A stretch of DNA of 64,000 nucleotides from Balanoglossus misakiensis (Eukaryota > Animalia > Hemichordata), in assembly GCA_040954595.2 (NCBI GenBank), contig CM082585.2, positions 8,201,404 to 8,265,403 of the forward strand, read 5' to 3'. This document shows, piece by piece, positions 34,409-45,432 of this stretch. Under the pieces are notes generated by a model that was given only the letters and a program-made list of their open reading frames with translations, was not told the DNA's origin and searched no databases. Position numbers and translations under genes: made by a program. Positions within the stretch are counted from its first letter, which is position 1, and every line of letters starts with the position of its first letter.

Positions 34409-37400
34409 ATGGCACTGCGGGACAATCGATGGTTGACACTTGAAGTTTGCCGAGAGTTCCAGCGTGGAACATGTACGAGGCCCGACACTGAGTGCAAGTT
34501 TGCCCATCCATCCAAATCCGTCACAGTAGAAAACGGTCGAGTTACTGCTTGCTTTGATTCGCTTAAGGTATGTATAACATCGTCCCAAACCCAGGTTTAA
34601 GCTCTGACTGCATGGTCAAGTCTTAATTAACTTTTTTTTTTCTTTGCTGCAATCATTGTATTATTTTTTTTATTTTTTTCTCATTGTTCGAACGCTTTGA
34701 CTGACCTGGCTCATTGCATGCATGTCCTAAATGTGCAGCAATGCTTCTGTATACAGCTGAGGTGATAAAAATACCAAAAAAGAAATCCATAATTTTATGC
34801 ACGTATATGGATAACTGTCCAGAATTTGCCATCTATTTCTAAAAAAAATAAATATTGGTACAATGCAGCTACTGCTAAAATCTACACAACCACAGAATAT
34901 TACAATGTCTGTTGCCATAACATCACATTTCTGTTGCAGCTGTCGGTTCTCACAAGTAACTGGTTAAAAAGTCCACCTTGACTTCTGATTTCTTGCCAAA
35001 TATAGCACTGTGGCAACAAAGCAAGTCTCGGTTTCCACAGTAACATGTATATTGGTTTTTTCGACCGCCATTAAAGATGGATGCCTTCTAAGAATGCAAG
35101 AGAATTTCTTGGAAACCTACACTGATCAACTTTCAGTCTTTCTGGTGAAAAACATCTCTGCAAATGTTTTCACAGTTTTTCAGCACAATGATGCGGATTG
35201 CTTGCAGAGTGTAAATTATTTCACAAATGTTTGTTTTGTCATAGTTGGATGAACTATTAATTGATTGTGAAGTACAGACTAAAGCAAATAGTGGTAGATA
35301 GGTGGTGATATATGGTAAACTCCTCTCTTAATATCAGAATTTAGAAACTTCAACCATGGATTTGAAGATGAGAAATGGGTTGAAAGTTATAATATTATGA
35401 AATTAGCACAGTGTATCTGTAAAACTTCAAAAATAAAAATTCTTACTAAGAATAGGTAACGTACAGTACTTCTGGTGTTTGTTCTTTTGAGGTTTGTTAA
35501 AAAATTCAAATGTTCATAGAAGACTTAGCTCGAAGTGTACTCATTGGTGTAAGTCGATCAATGTACTTTTAAAATGAAAAAAATTCCTAGAATCTGAATC
35601 GCAATGTCAAATTTCCAACCTTCTTCATCATAGCTTGCGGTGTTACTGTTTAATCATGATATCTGATCATATTGTTAATGATCCCATGTCGTAGGTCAAG
35701 TTGAGCCTGTTTGCATTGTATTAAAAAATCCACAGTGTGCCCTTGTTGTTGCTATGTTTAGAATTTGTGAAGGGAGGATGTTCGTGACCTGATAGTGATA
35801 TTCAAAAAGGTCACGCCATTATTTGGGGCTGTCTAGCTTTGAGGCCTTAATATAAACAACAATAAATACCCCCAAAATAGCACCATAGTTTCCCTGAGGA
35901 AATTTAAACACATATCAAAGTAACATATTATTTGAAATTACAAACAGTCCATTCGCTGAAAATTTGATACACGCTGATTTTCTGGGAAAAAAGGGTGTTT
36001 TTTGCTCAAGGCAATCTTGTTAAACGCTTACTTTACCGCCAGTCAGGCAAATAGTTCTCAAGCAGGCAAATCACTCTCTAGACTTTCATTTTTTTCTCTC
36101 TTTAGACTACACAAGAGTGTCTGGCTGAGAAAAGCTTAAAATAGAAAAAACAGCATCGCCGTTATTTCCCTCCGTCATTTATCACAGTGTTAATGGTGCG
36201 AAAGACTACCAAACATCACATGACATGCCAGAGATTTGGTCATTTGCATAAAATCCTGATCAGGCAAAGTAACTGAAGAAGTACAGGCATTGACTCAGAG
36301 AGATGCTATTTGCAGTCAGACAACTTGGCAACCCATTTGAATGTCTGGGCCTCAAGAACGTTGAACTGTTAACACGCTGGACTTATTTAAACTATTTGCG
36401 ATTCAGACATTCCCGTTATATTTCAGTATCAGTTAACGGTGGATTTTCTTCTAGTGGTTTACTTTGTGCTGTCTGGGGCGAGAGCACTAAGGATATAGCT
36501 CTGCATTTCTAGTACACGGTAGTTCCTTCGGCGAGTCTGGTGAGATGACTGACAGCAGTCGTGCATTAATAGCCTCAAATATTCGACACAACCGCTCTGA
36601 GATTAATTTGTTTTAAGAGGTCATCCATGTGACTTTTTGTAATAATTTTGACGGTAACCACTTTTTTGAAAGGTGCTGAATTTGACAAGAATTACAAAGT
36701 GTTCATCATTTCAGTGAAGGAAAGCATAATCGGTATAAAATATAATCTGTAAATTAGTGTAGAAGTCAGATAGTACATAATTTGCAGTCATCAAATATTT
36801 TGTAAATGGAAATGTTTAATATATTAGAGAAGGGATGATCCTGACATTTAATTAATGTAGACCTAACCAAACTCTCTTTCATGCAGTCATCTCCAAATAT
36901 CATAATACAAACATAAATGAGCATCTATCTTGTAAGAAATACAAAGCCAACAAATCGATGTCTGTTTAACTTCTCTCACACATTATTTCCTTATTTTTTC
37001 TTTGCCCTTCATTTTTGTTTTCGAATTTTCGCCCGCAGGGTAAGTGCACCCGTGAAAATTGTAAATATTTACATCCGCCGGCGCATCTGAAGAGCCAACT
37101 GGAGATTAATGGACGCAACAATCTAGCGGCTCAAAAGATGTTACAACAGTTACCGTTCCAACCCCTGGTGCACGGGCCGATGACAACACACGTGGTAAGT
37201 GGCACTGACCATCCCCGAGTCTACTGGCCACCATTACATACTCTGGTACAAGGGCCAGTCACATCGCAGGGGGTAAGTGGTACTACACTAGATACAAACG
37301 CCTCGCAGCTCTGCCATGCCAGCAGCCTTCGCTTGCAATATAAAGACCAGCTGCCAATAAATACTAAAAGAAAGGCAAGTAGTTCGGACGGGGGAGGGGG

Positions 37401-40400
37401 ATTTATACATTCCCCATTTTGGCCAGTGTTGTGGGCTTGCGAGACAGGGAAGCTTAGTAAAGGTATTTTGTTAAAATCGGCAGCTTGTTTCGGCCACGCA
37501 TTGCAGTGATTGTTGCAGATCATGTTGGCTTGGTGTGGGTGCAGGGTTTTGGGCCAGTGTAGTCACATCAACCAGTGAAGGCCACGGTTACGGGTGGAGC
37601 AGTGATCGGATGTTTCAATTCATTTTGCCAGCTATGGGCTGGATACAACACAAGGCTACGCCTGGAATTATTGCCTCGAATTTCCTTTTGTTCACTCTGG
37701 GTAGTTCACAGGTCATATTTGGTTTCATAATAGCAAGTTAAGATTATTCTTGACTTCAAGCAAGACTGTTTTAAAACAGCTCTAAAGCCACGTAATTTTG
37801 AGTTCAGTGGCAGGGTTTGGGGCTATATTGCTGGTAACATCAGCAAAACAAGATGACATTTTGTGATTTGGGTCCAAGTTCATGTCTAAGTACAGTTACC
37901 ATGTGTGTTTATTTGTGGTGTTGCTAGGTCTGCTTTGTGTGCAGCTTAGATTCACAGAGTGTCTGTTTGTGTCTGCATAAAGTGTTTGGAACAAGCCCTT
38001 ACTGTTTTGTTTTTGTGTTTTTTTGTTTTGTTTAAAAGCAGGAATTGGAAAGGCACCTGGGGTGGTCACCTTGGTTGATGGGGTCGGGGGTGGGTGTGAA
38101 TTTTAATTTGCTTTGCTGATATAAATGCTTGAAATTTTACGATAGATATGATATTTTGAGTGATATGTGTACAGATCATGACCAGTTTTGTGAGATTTAC
38201 CTGTGTTGGGAGTGTTACAGAAACAGTCATCTTGGTTGAATTTGCAAGATATTCCGATTAGTGTGGAATTATTAAGTTATACTTTCATTCCTCAGACAAT
38301 ATTTGGCCTTGTCTGTGGAATTATGACACAAAATAATTGGCCATCACTTTCATGCCCTTGACATGATCACAAACCACTGACAAAGCACATTTGTCCATTT
38401 TACATTCTTCCAGAATCCACAGTTTGTGAACTCGCCACCCGTGACAACTTTCAATCCATATCTCGCCCACACACCAACTTTGCCCAATGACAACCTACCG
38501 TTGAACGTTCCTGGCCTGGTCCCCACTCCACCAATCATGCCGCAGCAGAAACTGCAAAGAAACGACAGACTTGAGGTAAGTGAACAGAAATCTGATGAGT
38601 CGCTTTGAAGGATTACAATCACTCTCGTTTCATTTCAGTTTTCAGAATAATTACAGGTATAACCCAAAGTCTTGTATAAGGCAGTAATGATGGACAAAAA
38701 TTGAGGCCATCTTTTCTGAAAATCATCATGCATGGTCACATTAAAGGTATACAGTCACCTCCAATTTACATACGCCCATATATGGCTGAAATGGAGTATT
38801 TGAGCGTTCTAAAGAACATATAGTGGCGCTCTATTTTTCGCATGTGCCAACCACTGAAAATCAGTGATTGGCTAGATCTTAATTTGCCATGGTAACTACA
38901 GCTAATTTTCCATAGGTGACCCGTATACCTTTAAATTGACCATGTAGGTTTTGCTTGGTAAAAATACTAGTATAATGAATGAATGCTATGGGTTTTTTCC
39001 ATCCTGAATATTGCATGGAAAAGAGCCTGATTGTGATTAAACGAGTATTTCACGCTTTCACTTCTCCGCACAGGTCTGCCGCGAGTTCCAGCGCGGCAAC
39101 TGCACTCGCGGCGAGAACGACTGCAAGTTTGCCCACCCGGGGGAGCACGTGACCATCGACACCACGGAGAACAGCGTCACCGTCTGCATGGACTACATCA
39201 AGGGGCGCTGCTCCCGCGACAAGTGCAAATACTTCCACCCACCACCGCACTTACAGGCACGCATCAAAGCTGCTCAGCATCAGGCTTCGCAGGCGTCGGC
39301 CGCCGCCGCAGCTGCGGCCATGGTATGTACCGAATAAAAACCCGGCACTCGTATCTCGTTTTCGTTTGCATCTTATACTAGTCTCCATTCGTTTTGAAAC
39401 AGAAAATGAGATCAGGAAACGACGACCAAAATCTTGCATGTGATTGTCGTGTTTCATGAGATTTTTATATATTTCTCATATCATGTGTTAACCATTTCAA
39501 ATCACTAGTAGACTAGACTAGATGTCAATTTGCTCATCATCTCATGCCTTTTTTATATAATTTTTGTTTAAAATTTTAAAATTTTATTTTGGTTGCGGTT
39601 AACAAATGCTGAGCTCGCGTAATCGTGCATAAAAATGTTTCTATACTCTATCAAAGTGTCTCTGTCTGTCTCTTAAATGCTAGCTGCTTTGCTGCTCTGC
39701 TGTCATCTTCATCTGACTTTCACACAAAATATAAAAACCCTCCCGTCCAACAAAATTTAATGTTGAATGTCATAGATTTTCTTCACTTGGTACACCAGTG
39801 TAACTATATGGTAAATTGTTGTCAATAAGGAATGCGAACGGCTGATGAAAACCTTGCAAAATCAACAATAAGCATTTAGCAAATTTAAATAAAGTTCCAC
39901 TGGGATAAATGTCCTACTTTGTAAGATAAATATGACAATTTTGATCATTTGCTATATGATAAAGGTTATTTCCACCCTCAATAAAATTTACCTTATTGGT
40001 TACAGTTTTTCAATAGGACTGATTTATTGTAACAAAGTGTAACAAGCACTGTTATAACATGTATCACAATGTGGTACAATGTAACACACTGGTATACAAT
40101 GCAACTGTTACTGTACAATATAACTGTATTGTACAACATAATAGTGTTATGCAATGTTACAGTTAACATGTAACAATGTGATACAGTGTAACCATATAAT
40201 ATACAATGTAACACTGTGTTACTATGTGGTATTATACAGTGTACATCTGTAGCAAGTTGTTACACAATGTTACAATATCAATTGTGAAACATTGGTGTAC
40301 ATGAATAACCACACACAATTTGTTTTCTGTCAATAACTCAAACATGTTTTGATTTTTGGCCACGATGTGAAAGTTTGGATGTTGCCTATAGCTTTGTCTG

Positions 40401-43400
40401 TCTTCACACTAAAAAAACTAACCAAAAAACTAACACCCTAAAAAAAGCATCATCCGTGCAAATATGAGTTGCCCTGCTTCCGAAACTTTCAAAACCATCA
40501 TTTCATTTAAAATCTTAATGTTTGCATTTAAATCTTGACATTCTCACTCGTGATTTGCAGATATGTATCGCCATGGCGATAGTATATCTCAAATCCAATG
40601 TCATTGTTGAGTGTTTCAGTTTGCTTTTTTATTTTCAAATCATTAATTTGTGTGTATGTTGTTGACTAGTTAGCTTGTTTTTTAAGTTGCTGGTTGAATG
40701 AATATAATTTCCAGTGTTTGTTGTTAATTGACTTTCTCTGTCTTCTTTAGTTCAAGCACCGCTGTTGTTTTTAATGCATGTATTATAACGGGTAGTGTTT
40801 TGACTGGTTGGCTTGAAGTGGAACAGTGCACCGTTGAATACTAGCGTATACTGTTTTAGTAGACGAATCATACAGTCAAGTAAAAATCTATCTGTGTATA
40901 TATGTATATATCTCAACGGAAATCACCAACCAACCGATAATTTAGTTGGCTTTTTTTCTGGGGATGAGTGGAGAGCAATGCATGTACGGCTTGTCAAAAA
41001 CTGCCACGCCCACACAGATGGATATTTCTGATCGTTTGAAAAAAAAGAAAAAAACCAAAATCCAATGCTTATACACTCTTCACTTTGTTTCTCATTGACA
41101 TAAACACCATTGGGAAGCAGGTAAATTCTATACATCACCAACAAAATTTGACCACTGTTCTTGCCTTTCTTCAAATGTTAAAACATTACCTGATTGCACA
41201 CAAATGTCTGTACTATAACTTGCTTTGTAAAAAAAGAGAAAATGAACTTGATTACATGTTTATATTACATTGCGTTGTTTGATGAGAAAGGCAAGAATGT
41301 GTTGTAAAGCGGCCTTGAAAAGGTGACTCTGCATGCCTGGTTTCAGGAATATATAGAACACCTAGCTTTGAATGAGCAGGCCGTTACATTTTTTTATTTT
41401 TTCTCTTTTTTTTTAAAACTTCGATATCACAATCAAGCTGTTTATATTTACATGTTGGGCAATGCATTGTTCTTTCTCTGATATAGGCTTTGACTGTTCA
41501 CCACAGACACCATTGATTGCATGACTGTTCACTTACATCCTCCCTTTTGCTCTTTTTTTGTTTCCCATGATGCATTGCTGTGCTTGCTGTTTATGTTAAT
41601 GACTCTGCCTGTCCCATGCTGCAATCCCATTGGCCCATTGCCATCATGTGCTACGCATACTAATAAGCTTCCGACCACGCCTGATAAGAGCAACAAGAAG
41701 CGAGCCAGAGACCCTGCCGATGAGATTATACTGGTACTGACTTGTCCTTGCTTATGTACATTTCATACCTGATTAGATTTGGAGAAAGAGAGAGAAAAAA
41801 TTAATCAAATTGACATGATATGAATTGATGAATTTTGACTATATGATGAAAAAATCAGTGATTTCATTTTGATTTGTTTGTAGAAGTTTTGTAGAAGTAG
41901 ATTAATTATTAATTGATTTCATTTTTGATTGAGACACGTTTTCAATGTTGAAGTATCATGATAGCCAAGCTGAGAGGCAGCCAAATATTTTATGATATCG
42001 TCACAGGGCTGTGTGATAAAATCTATTATAACATGGCTGCATGATCAGATGATATTACACATATATAGCATGGCAGCCTAATAAAATTCATATTCCGCGT
42101 ACATGTAAAATTTATACTGCATGGTAGTCAGATAAAACTCTATGTTCTATTGTTGTCTGATAAACTTTGTTACATGTGGAACAATTTATATGTGCTTCAC
42201 AATGAAACTGATAAAATGGCTGCCTTATATCAGATTAGAAAGCGAGAAAAATATTTTGAGTGATTTTTGAGAAAAACAAATGATTGTTTTAATTAAATTC
42301 CTTTGCCATATTTTTGTATTTCTGTAGGCACTTCCTGGTATGATACCACTGAAGAAAGGTCCTGGGGCAATGTTTCAAGGTGCTAACGCGTATCAACAAG
42401 CCTTGGCTAATTTTCAATTTACACACCAACCTTCACACTTTGTACAATCACCATGTAAGTGTGTGTATACAGAACGATATCAGACAACATAATCAGTATG
42501 TTTTGGGTTGAGTATTTGTCAGGAAATTTAGGTCTATCACAGTTCTATCATTAGACGTTCTATCATGCAGGTTTTTCAATTACAAATGGCAAATTTGTCT
42601 GCAGTTAACGACTGCATGTATCAAATTCAAAATGGCCAGTACACTCAGGGATATATGTCCATCTGTGGGGAACACTTATAATTATTGGTTTTCTCTTTAA
42701 CCAGGATAATGAACGCGTATGTTTCTTGTTTAGTTTTTAAGTTCCATACAAACATCAAAAACTGACAAGATGTTCTCTTTTCTGAAATGAATCCATGTTT
42801 GTGTGTAATGATCAGATTCTTTTTCAGATCTTAGGTGAATTTTTTCTCAAACTGGGTGTCTCAAATTCACAGTCCTTTCACCCCGTTTCCCTGAAAGTGG
42901 TTTCAACCACACGTGATTGGAAACGGTAGAAGAACATATGTTTGTATCGCAATGTATGTTCATATTAGAGACATACTGAATGTGTCTGAACTTTACACCA
43001 AATTGATAATCACATATAAATGATATTGCATCAATTAACTCTCATCGACACAGTTAGTATTTGATGAATGGATGGGGGAACATTCATTGGAACTTGTATT
43101 GTTTTGAATCGACTGACATTGAACAATGTCAAAAAGGTCATCTTTTAAATTTTAATTCAGATGACAATGTATCCGATTCATTTGAAGTATACAGCCATGT
43201 TGATAATGTTAAGACTGCTAGAGCATTGATAAAAGTGGCAGATCATTAAAACCAACCAGATTACACCTTGAAGACAATCCCTTAACCCCCAACTTCAGAC
43301 TTGCGACAGACGTGCAAGGTCTGACGTACATGCACGCTTCGTAGAAAGAAAAATCACCACAACCTTGAGGTAATTCTGTAAATTGGTTTACGCCCTGCTG

Positions 43401-45432
43401 CGACTAAAATGATCTCCGACGATTCCAATGCTCTAACAGTTCACTGTTACAGTAGTGTTTTTCTTGACCAGTAAGTGTGCGTCTTTCTAATTTTTGCTTT
43501 TTTCTCTTTTTTTTATTTCATGATCATCTGGCTGGGTACCTGCTTGCCATTGATATATTTGCATGTTGCTGGCAAACGTTGGTTGTTGCTTGCGTCTGCT
43601 GTACGTTGTTGCTCCCTGCCTATATTATAGTTCCCATGATGGCCCCCATCCCTACTGCTGGTGCTCAGGCTGCTAGTGTGCCATACTACAATGCACAGCA
43701 TCAGGTAGAAAATTCATAGTTTCATTTTACGTTGATTTTTCTTATTACTCTAGTTACGATTTGTTGTCAGTTGATCGCAGCCGACCAGCTGGTACGGACA
43801 ATTTGCATATAAGTCATCAGTTACACCTGGCTTTACAGTGAGACAGGAGTTTCACCTTGAGGTTAATTCTGTCCCCACCTGGTTGGCTATTTACTGGTGA
43901 TGCTATGTCAGTATTGGTTCCTTTCTGAAGAATCGGAATAAATCTAACCATAAGCAAATTACAATGAATTAAATTTGTGACACGAGTATGCATAATTCAT
44001 GACCATGGAAATGATTAAATTTGAGTTTGACTACACATTCTAGTGTACTCTACAGTCATTTTTGACTGTCATGTCCCATAATCCTTTGCAGCCCTGAGGG
44101 TCAAACGGGCCCAAAAAGGAGACCAATTTGAAACGGTGTTTGTTTCGACCAATTAGAGAGGACGCTTCCTTGTGCGCTGCAGCCCGCATTTTGCAATTGC
44201 TAGTTCGCAGTTGTACTGCTGCTGCTGCTGTAAAATTCAATATGGCTGCCGAAGCCTAACCTGGTGGGAACACTGCAAAGCATTGTGGGATATTTAAATC
44301 TGCATGACAAAGGTTTTTTATGTCTGGTTATTAAATTTGGTTATTCTAGTTTAGATATACAGACTTGATTGCGTCACTTTGTTTGTTTGCCTTCAAATGC
44401 TGACTAAATGAAAATTCCATCTCATTTTTTCAGTTGGCAGAAACTTTGCCTGTATGTCGTGACTTCAAGGCGGGAAATTGTAAGCGGCCAAACTGTCGTT
44501 ACGTACATTTAACTGAAGGTGAGTCTGGTTAGAGTGAGCAGTTTACAATGCAACCGGGCTTCCAGACTTTGTGATGTGGTGTCAGCTAAAACGCCAAACC
44601 AAATTGACTAATTTGAGGTTTATTTATAGCACATCTGAGATGAATTTGTGCGAATTTTCATTGCGAACATCATTTAGGAAGGAACATGGAGAGGGTACTT
44701 GATTGGCACGCCATTCAAGCCTGCATTATCACTTCACAACTTGCATGGAAAAAAAAATGCATGCAGTGAAATACATTAGGACTCTGTCATCTAAACCGTC
44801 AAATATGACGATATGAGCTGTGATCAGTACCGGCCGAACATTAAAACAATTCAGCTTTGTTTTAATCATCAAGTGGAGAACCCTGCCTGCATGTGAGCTG
44901 TTTTTCGTTGTGTAAATCATGATACAGATGGACTTGACGAGTACACACGATCTGTCTGCTTTTAGCTTAGCACTGTATTAACAATCGTTATTGTAATCTC
45001 TTCCATATAGATTATGTAGAAGTTATAGATGGTAAAGTGACTCTTTGCCGTTATGCGGCACAAGGCAGGTGTACACGACCCAAGTGTAAATTCTATCATT
45101 TACCAACAGTTCACAGTGGTGCAAGCGTTCCAACTTCGATACCAGTTCCAGTCGTCACAATGACGGTGTAAATTCCTTCGTCTGATTTTACTCTTTTTTT
45201 TTCCTGTCTATGAATCAATGCATTTTTTCTATTCAACAGTGTCCTTTTTTATTTCTTTTTTTTCTTTTTTTCTATGTACATGGCAGATCATGTAGAAGTA
45301 GTTGATGGTAAAGTGACTGTGTGCCGCGATGCTGCAAAAGGCAAGTGCACCCGCCCCCTCTGCAAATATTACCACATCCCAGTCCATTTGTTGGCTCTAC
45401 AAGCTGCTGAATTGAATCGGCCCGGGTGCTAG
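34409..45432 (+). CDS. MBNL: Muscleblind-like RNA-binding splicing regulator with six CCCH zinc fingers (~407 aa with all cassette exons and terminal exon B)
   Basis: Exons: 34409-34567 ([33 protein letters not shown]...VTACFDSLK); 37039-37194 ([29 protein letters not shown]...); 38414-38575 (...[11 protein letters not shown]); 39074-39322 ([21 protein letters not shown]...[32 protein letters not shown]...AAAAAAAM); 41668-41733; 42328-42454 (...YQQALANFQ...); 43631-43704; 44434-44518 (ZnF5); then 45011-45171 or 45287-45432 (ZnF6). All junctions are GT-AG with consistent phases. [13 protein letters not shown] and LEINGRNNL are diagnostic for MBNL. Confidence 0.96.
38745..38930 (+). mobile_element. 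Kolobok-type MITE, copy 1 (186 bp), in an MBNL intron
   Basis: TTAA|AGGTATACAGTCACCT ... AGGTGACCCGTATACCT|TTAA; homologous to 50249-50435. Confidence 0.9.
40025..40280. repeat. Degenerate low-complexity TGTAACA/TGTTACA-type repeat
   Basis: Recurrent tgtaaca, tgtacaa, tgttaca and tacaatg units. Confidence 0.6.
41507..41667 (+). promoter_or_regulatory. MBNL autoregulatory intronic splicing element (AG-exclusion zone, distant pyrimidine tract, YGCY cluster)
   Basis: No AG from 41507 to 41665. The pyrimidine tract is at ~41536-41566, followed by about 8 YGCY motifs up to the acceptor. Confidence 0.85.
41668..41733 (+). CDS. MBNL: MBNL 66-nt cassette exon with basic NLS-like motif (counterpart of vertebrate MBNL1 54-nt exon 5)
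   Basis: [22 protein letters not shown], phase 0/0, with an AAG acceptor (ctaataag) and donor CTG|gtactg. It lies between the poly-Ala-Met exon and the YQQALAN exon. Confidence 0.85.
43476..43630 (+). promoter_or_regulatory. Second AG-free, YGCY-rich 3' splice-site element upstream of the 74-nt MBNL exon
   Basis: No AG from 43476 to 43628. Branch-like tttctaat at ~43484-43491, then a U-rich tract, then tgcttgcc, ttgctg, ttgcttgcg, ctgctg and ttgctccctgcc. Confidence 0.7.
44434..44518 (+). CDS. MBNL: MBNL exon encoding a fifth CCCH finger
   Basis: ttttttcag|[28 protein letters not shown](G)|gtgagt; spacing C-x7-C-x4-C-x3-H; in frame with exon 43631-43704. Confidence 0.88.
45011..45171 (+). 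CDS. MBNL: MBNL alternative terminal exon A (ZnF6a)
   Basis: ccatatag|[53 protein letters not shown]; phase 1, intact CCCH. Confidence 0.75.
45287..45432 (+). CDS. MBNL: MBNL alternative terminal exon B (ZnF6b)
   Basis: Long U tract, then ggcag|[48 protein letters not shown]; phase 1, intact CCCH. Confidence 0.85.

Follow-up and report, generated by a model that had tools for sequence, protein, structure and literature searches.

The end of one intron in the muscleblind gene of the acorn worm Balanoglossus misakiensis is probably the orthologue of the silencer that precedes exon 5 of vertebrate MBNL1, and Muscleblind likely represses its own KKR-containing exon through it. We give this reading, which is drawn from sequence comparison, a probability of roughly 80%. 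The silencer was likely inherited from the bilaterian ancestor and would predate the split of the main animal groups. The window analyzed here is a stretch of 64,000 nt (contig CM082585.2 of assembly GCA_040954595.2, positions 8,201,404 to 8,265,403 of the forward strand). An initial annotation of this DNA had inferred a non-coding splicing switch older than vertebrates. Homology to a jawed-vertebrate locus and to published human primers supports a switch of pre-vertebrate origin, and the alignment of three lophotrochozoan loci points to an age even greater than the one proposed.

The muscleblind gene occupies positions 34409-45432 on the forward strand. A ten-exon model translates without stops and is identical to three Ptychodera flava isoforms at 397 of 411, 375 of 389 and 370 of 384 residues. 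In a tree built from a short alignment of 72 columns, from which the Xenia, Trichoplax and Styela rows were left out, the window is sister to Ptychodera. Its gene thus belongs to an enteropneust hemichordate, an invertebrate of the Ambulacraria. The exon upstream of the intron (39074-39322, + strand) has AG/GT boundaries and codes for zinc fingers 3-4 and a polyalanine stretch; this zinc finger exon is 99% identical to that of P. flava and 98% identical to that of Glandiceps talaboti. The cassette exon lies between it and the exon bearing the second basic motif of the gene (42328-42454, + strand), where PLKKG stands in place of PKR. Elsewhere in the gene, two alternative terminal exons (45011-45171 and 45287-45432) each complete zinc finger 6 and match isoforms X7 and X8 of P. 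flava. The zinc finger 2 exon is followed by a donor-like sequence that occurs again some 80 nt further on, within an open frame (37195-37280); this second copy is possibly an alternative donor.

We recovered the landmarks that the initial annotation had listed for the intron end. The AG-free zone has exactly the claimed length of 159 nt (41507-41665, + strand), is flanked by AGs at 41505-41506 and 41666-41667, and is the longest such zone on the forward strand of the whole window. Matches to the yTnAy consensus within 41513-41536 (+ strand) place candidate distant branch adenosines at 41516, 41531 and 41535, which are 152, 137 and 133 nt upstream of the exon (-152, -137 and -133). The polypyrimidine tract is displaced as claimed (41538-41563, + strand), with its best 20-nt pyrimidine window at -128, compared with -24 to -60 at seven other acceptors of the gene. 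One further acceptor, at 43631, also has a distant tract (-133). Eight YGCY motifs fall within 41548-41652, in line with the approximate count given earlier; at least eight are found in 12 of 6388 120-nt tiles of the window, at three places. ACTAAT adjoins a weak AAG acceptor (41659-41667, + strand), and the 66-nt in-frame cassette exon that follows (41668-41733, + strand) contains KKR, is orthologous to vertebrate MBNL1 exon 5 and ends at the donor CTG/GTACTG (41734-41739, + strand).

Within the zone we distinguished three conserved blocks. Block 1 (CCCATGATGCA; 41564-41574, + strand) follows the pattern CCCAYSATGC, block 2 (41581-41601, + strand) contains TGCTTGCTGTT and tandem YGCY motifs, and block 3 spans 41623-41652 (+ strand). 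A central YGCY at 41617-41620 (+ strand) corresponds in position to the site that dominates in human (del3/3M). Further upstream, TGCATG is present at 41518-41523 (+ strand), with its GCATG at -149. TGCATG is an Rbfox-type motif, and the ACTAAT beside the acceptor is a STAR/SF1-type motif. The Rbfox name is also used in PMC10773944.

We compared the window with 80 animal muscleblind loci collected by a protein-based scan. The vertebrate DNA in this set is one locus, L004, which falls in the jawed-vertebrate clade (support 96/90) and has a 54-nt exon and an AAG acceptor. Judged by its peptide, L004 is presumably a fish MBNL2. The last 104 intron bases of the window and the last 96 of L004 share 79 identities. 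This pairwise, acceptor-anchored alignment is significant: its local score of 83 compares with 23 ± 4 for dinucleotide-preserving shuffles, and none of 1000 shuffles reached it. Block 3 is identical to L004 at 29 of 30 positions, with an E value of 2.7e-5 when the whole window is searched against the 80 loci. That search returned 107 matches, eight of them non-exonic. The best three of the eight lie within the intron-end element, which is the strongest non-exonic match of the window, and the other five are AT-rich.

The similarity to L004 has limits on the other side of the acceptor. The initial annotation had described the exon peptide as diverged. This holds for the exon DNA, where the local score against L004 (16) is no better than chance and was reached by 120 of 1000 shuffles, but the homology of the peptide is still recognizable through amphioxus and lamprey. 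The intron downstream of the donor shows a marginal alignment with L004 (13 of 500 shuffles) and no alignment with the lophotrochozoan loci L008, L010 and L022 (159-268 of 500 shuffles).

Human letters were available as the MBNL1 minigene primers printed in PMC5082313. Primer 4M-forward matches 41630-41649 in block 3 with two mismatches (1 of 100 shuffles), both ends of 3M-reverse match 41566-41588 with a spacer of 6 nt versus 4 nt (0 of 100 shuffles), and the 12 bases at the start of 3M-forward match the adjoining 41589-41600 (1 of 100 shuffles). Published human sequence thus matches three adjacent blocks of the window. Read by eye, the primers also have the same YGCY-N10-TGGCC spacing at the central site as the window. 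Together with the L004 alignment, the primers identify the YGCY array between tract and acceptor as homologous to the vertebrate silencer. An AAG acceptor for human MBNL1 exon 5 is stated in print (PMC7901844). As described in the literature (PMC5082313, PMC7901844), the human and mouse MBNL1 silencer in intron 4 resembles the acorn-worm intron end in following the zinc finger 3-4 exon and in having a distant tract, an AG-free zone, an AAG acceptor, a YGCY array, identical blocks in the same order, the same central-site spacing and an in-frame basic exon. The two differ in exon length (66 nt in the acorn worm, 54 nt in human and mouse), in about 14 extra bases between blocks 2 and 3, in the second basic motif (KK rather than KR), and in a third zinc-finger pair in the acorn-worm gene.

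The element can also be aligned outside the deuterostomes. Loci L008, L022 and L010 (the last bivalve-like) fall in a lophotrochozoan clade (support 100/98). Alignments of L022, L008 and L010 with the window lie in the same place and score 78, 53 and 39, and 0 of 1000 shuffles reached each of these; in a second shuffle run, the score of L010 was reached once in 500. Aligned directly with L004, loci L008, L022 and L010 give modest scores of 36, 31 and 35 (1, 9 and 0 of 500 shuffles). Since the direct vertebrate-lophotrochozoan scores are low and those with the window are higher, the acorn worm serves as a bridge between the two. The element is therefore alignable between a vertebrate and non-deuterostomes, at the same position and in the same orientation in orthologous genes, by region-level shuffle tests rather than genome-wide E values. 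The protostome matches span 30-45 nt.

The window, L004, L008, L010 and L022 each have an AG-free zone of 143-238 nt with 8-13 YGCY motifs. We derived block and spacing patterns from these five sequences themselves, so the counts that follow describe rather than test the similarity: CCCAYSATGC (block 1) is present in all five and has seven matches in 530 kb on both strands, five of them at the element position; TGCTTGCTGTT (block 2) is likewise present in all five, with five of its six matches in 530 kb at the element position; and YGCY-N10-TGGCC stands at -51, -55, -53 and -53 in the window, L004, L008 and L022. The bivalve-like locus L010 lacks both block 3 and this central-site spacing. The AAG acceptor is common to the window and L004, and the protostome loci have TAG. 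CTAAT or CTATT occurs at most 20 nt from the acceptor in the window and in 10 of 12 loci, the exceptions being two coral loci. The CTG/GTA donor is invariant in the window and seven aligned loci, from vertebrate to coral. GCATG recurs upstream at -149 in the window, -183 in L004, -165 in L008, -219 in L010, -170 in L022 and -155 in two coral loci, a recurrence that is no more than suggestive for so common a motif (0.28 per 230 nt).

A KR exon was seen in 13 of the 80 loci, of which nine were shuffle-tested, three are near-copies of L044 that were tested by motif, and one, L017, was inspected by eye and shows the exon but no trace of the element. Five of the nine shuffle-tested loci gave no significant alignment with the window, namely the coral loci L018 and L029 (44 and 166 of 1000 shuffles) and the pancrustacean loci L044, L048 and L072 (301-514 of 1000 shuffles). 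These pancrustacean and coral loci retain AG-free zones of 72-117 nt, YGCY motifs and the CTG/GTA donor. The layout shared with corals comprises the KR exon, the AG-free YGCY zone, the upstream GCATG and the donor. In the two loci of the coral clade, a 45-nt KR exon (L018 11874-11918, L029 12000-12044) occupies the equivalent place behind a 117-nt AG-free zone with 11-12 YGCY motifs and GCATG at -155; the donor is CTG/GTA, and in coral proteins KK is the basic motif that follows.

The remaining 67 loci end too early, resemble spliced transcripts or represent a divergent paralogue that lacks the exon (mapping covered 25 loci). Many loci among L026-L075 are near-identical and contain a divergent muscleblind paralogue like P0227, and no KR exon was found in this paralogue group. 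A profile of the five elements detected no further locus, the next matches having E values of 0.5 or worse, and an exact 21-nt pattern had no match in metagenome contigs. The only match to a 19-nt pattern in prokaryote genomes, in bacterial contig L081, shows no further similarity and was rejected as chance.

Protein and gene models suggest that the exon is widespread and can be skipped. In P. flava isoform X4, the 22-residue insert has the identical peptide; isoforms X7 and X8 lack exactly that exon in the database protein models. Gene models contain a homologous exon peptide in deuterostomes (amphioxus, four echinoderm classes, lamprey, hagfish and jawed vertebrates) and in other phyla (molluscs, an annelid, chelicerates, crustaceans and corals). 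Included and skipped forms both exist among database gene models of Ptychodera, amphioxus, a crinoid, lamprey, oyster, abalone and scallop. Ambulacrarians and corals have KK rather than KR as their second basic motif. This difference may be the reason why a double-KR screen reported Ambulacraria as an exception. The localization step may also differ in the acorn worm, where KK forms the second half of the nuclear signal.

The mammalian system suggests how the element could work. The YGCY motifs bound by MBNL1 occupy a region of 90 nt, downstream of a branch point at -141 and upstream of a weak AAG, and MBNL1 represses its own 54-nt exon, so that part of the nuclear signal is lost (PMC7901844). 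Loss of the central human YGCY shifts the half-maximal MBNL1 dose from 0.19 to 1.6-1.7, and the 4M and del4 changes have no effect on the dose response (PMC5082313). Muscleblind proteins from fly, worm, Ciona and Trichoplax repress a human exon-5 minigene (PMC5041496). The C. elegans case is similar to ours: exon 7 of mbl-1 is a KR exon that is skipped through repression by its own protein, MBL-1, and FOX-1 helps via an upstream GCAUG (PMC10773944). By analogy with the vertebrate and C. elegans work, repression of the exon by Muscleblind is likely in the acorn worm as well. The spliceosome would assemble some 130-150 nt ahead of the exon, at the distant branch point and pyrimidine tract, and would have to cross the AG-free YGCY array to reach the weak acceptor. 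When nuclear Muscleblind is abundant, it would bind the array and cause the exon to be skipped. The skipped form, without half of the nuclear signal, would shift toward the cytoplasm and so exert negative feedback on nuclear activity. Retained TGCATG and ACTAAT could let Rbfox- and STAR/SF1-type proteins tune the exon.

Block 3 contains a human YGCY the mutation of which (4M) has no effect, and MBNL binding alone therefore does not explain the conserved letters. The conserved non-YGCY bases, the upstream GCATG and ACTAAT suggest co-regulators. The same observations can be taken further: the element could be orthologous to the vertebrate silencer and still be read mainly by Rbfox, STAR/QKI or SF1, or be needed as DNA, with Muscleblind feedback in a minor role. 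Many of the conserved bases are indeed non-YGCY, TGCATG and ACTAAT recur across phyla, and both the co-repression of the equivalent C. elegans exon by FOX-1 (PMC10773944) and the silent human 4M and del4 changes (PMC5082313) fit such a model. We nevertheless consider it unlikely. Eight YGCY motifs in 105 nt put the array in the top 0.2% of tiles, and YGCY arrays persist even where alignment is gone. The spacing of the dominant human site is retained, and strand and position relative to the acceptor are fixed in all loci.

A switch based on RNA structure is less probable again. A helix between blocks 1 and 3 (CAUGAUG paired to CAUCAUG) could place the YGCY array in a loop; with the intron end folded alone, the pair probability is 0.9 for both the window and L004, but it drops to 0.2-0.4 when flanks are included. 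The helix is not favored in L008, L010 or L022, and no compensatory change distinguishes the window from L004. In favor of a structure, the first YGCY cluster of the human element is protected in SHAPE probing in the absence of MBNL1 (PMC7901844). The consensus fold of four sequences reaches -1.5 kcal/mol only and does not contain the helix, and shuffled sequences fold better than the region does (z +1.4). The folding and covariation analysis proposed with the initial annotation thus yielded neither a stable consensus fold nor covariation among four to five sequences. Rfam had no match at the element and one match elsewhere (E 0.69).

Convergence of YGCY-rich, pyrimidine-rich silencers, rather than descent, could be argued from the low complexity of YGCY repeats, from protostome matches of 30-45 nt and from block patterns that were drawn from the compared sequences. 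We hold this to be very improbable, as dinucleotide-preserving shuffles never attained the scores of the window with L004, L022, L008 or L010 (0 of 1000), and the blocks are collinear, include non-YGCY bases and precede an orthologous exon. The gene's second YGCY-rich AG-free zone, moreover, has no DNA match in the 80 loci. Least credible of all, and already largely refuted, is that the stretch is hidden coding sequence extending the exon upstream or vertebrate contamination of the assembly: the exon frame is open upstream to 41494 in the window, but L008, L010, L022 and L044 have stop codons in frame immediately ahead of the exon, gaps relative to L004 are not multiples of three, the nearest upstream AGs are out of frame, and the flanking exons are of acorn-worm type.

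Earlier surveys of conserved DNA offer comparisons. Matsunami and Saitou described one intronic conserved non-coding sequence (CNS) common to the MBNL1 and MBNL2 paralogues (PMC3595034); it is treated as vertebrate-specific in that study and is not among the three with amphioxus similarity. Judged by the exon coordinates, this CNS is presumably the exon-5 silencer element. Alignable non-coding DNA between vertebrates and protostomes is very rare, the transphyletic conserved elements of Frith and Ni (2023, PMC10735318) amounting to 25 segments. Those segments resemble ours in being non-coding, alignable from vertebrate to protostome and fixed in place within a regulator gene, and differ in kind, comprising promoters, enhancers, three segments from 3'-UTRs and one from a Coe intron. 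Neither the main text nor a term search of the supplement places MBNL among the 25, and none is described there as a splice-site silencer (PMC10735318).

The vertebrate element and its loop, the nematode loop and the exon across most bilaterians are already published. Since the C. elegans mbl-1 exon 7 loop is in print (PMC10773944), a pre-vertebrate autoregulatory loop is not in itself new. That paper reports the KR exon pair across bilaterians and names Ambulacraria as the exception, and its comparisons cover exon peptides between phyla and introns within the genus Caenorhabditis; in our data, an ambulacrarian has the exon together with a vertebrate-like intron end. We found no account of the exon in Ambulacraria, the reported exception, in the literature searched, and none of letter-level conservation of the element outside vertebrates, a search outside of which lay the 6,533 deuterostome elements of PMC4729200. 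The element fills the clade given as the exception in PMC10773944 and dates a disease-relevant human silencer. We judge it slightly better than an even chance that an alignable splice-site silencer has been kept since the bilaterian ancestor, with its layout already present in corals, as a transphyletic non-coding element that works at the level of splicing, not transcription, and the invariant non-YGCY bases of which are marks of co-regulators. If so, those bases would mark co-regulators of a human exon that is mis-spliced in myotonic dystrophy. The loci also constitute a natural mutagenesis series, in which some bases of a human ultraconserved element are retained by other phyla (blocks 1-2 and the spacing of the central site) and others are not. 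This offers a handle on why ultraconserved elements stay invariant despite the modest effects of single deletions.

The acorn-worm gene contains further YGCY-rich zones. In the region 43476-43704, a second long AG-free zone (153 nt) has its tract at -133, seven YGCY motifs in 130 nt and GCATG at 43561, and it precedes a 74-nt exon. Skipping of this exon would shift the frame and lead to a stop at residue 316, ahead of the third zinc-finger pair, and the exon is likely a second regulated exon of the muscleblind gene. A third YGCY-dense stretch (44131-44280) belongs to the intron that precedes the zinc finger 5 exon. Directly after the cassette donor, lophotrochozoan and pancrustacean loci have in common a motif ending in YGCTTTGCATGT (L008 9045-9065, L022 15746-15766, L044 7499-7520 and L072 3291-3312), to which the window has a partial match only. 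In L008 and L022, this motif begins with a second copy of the block 1 pattern.
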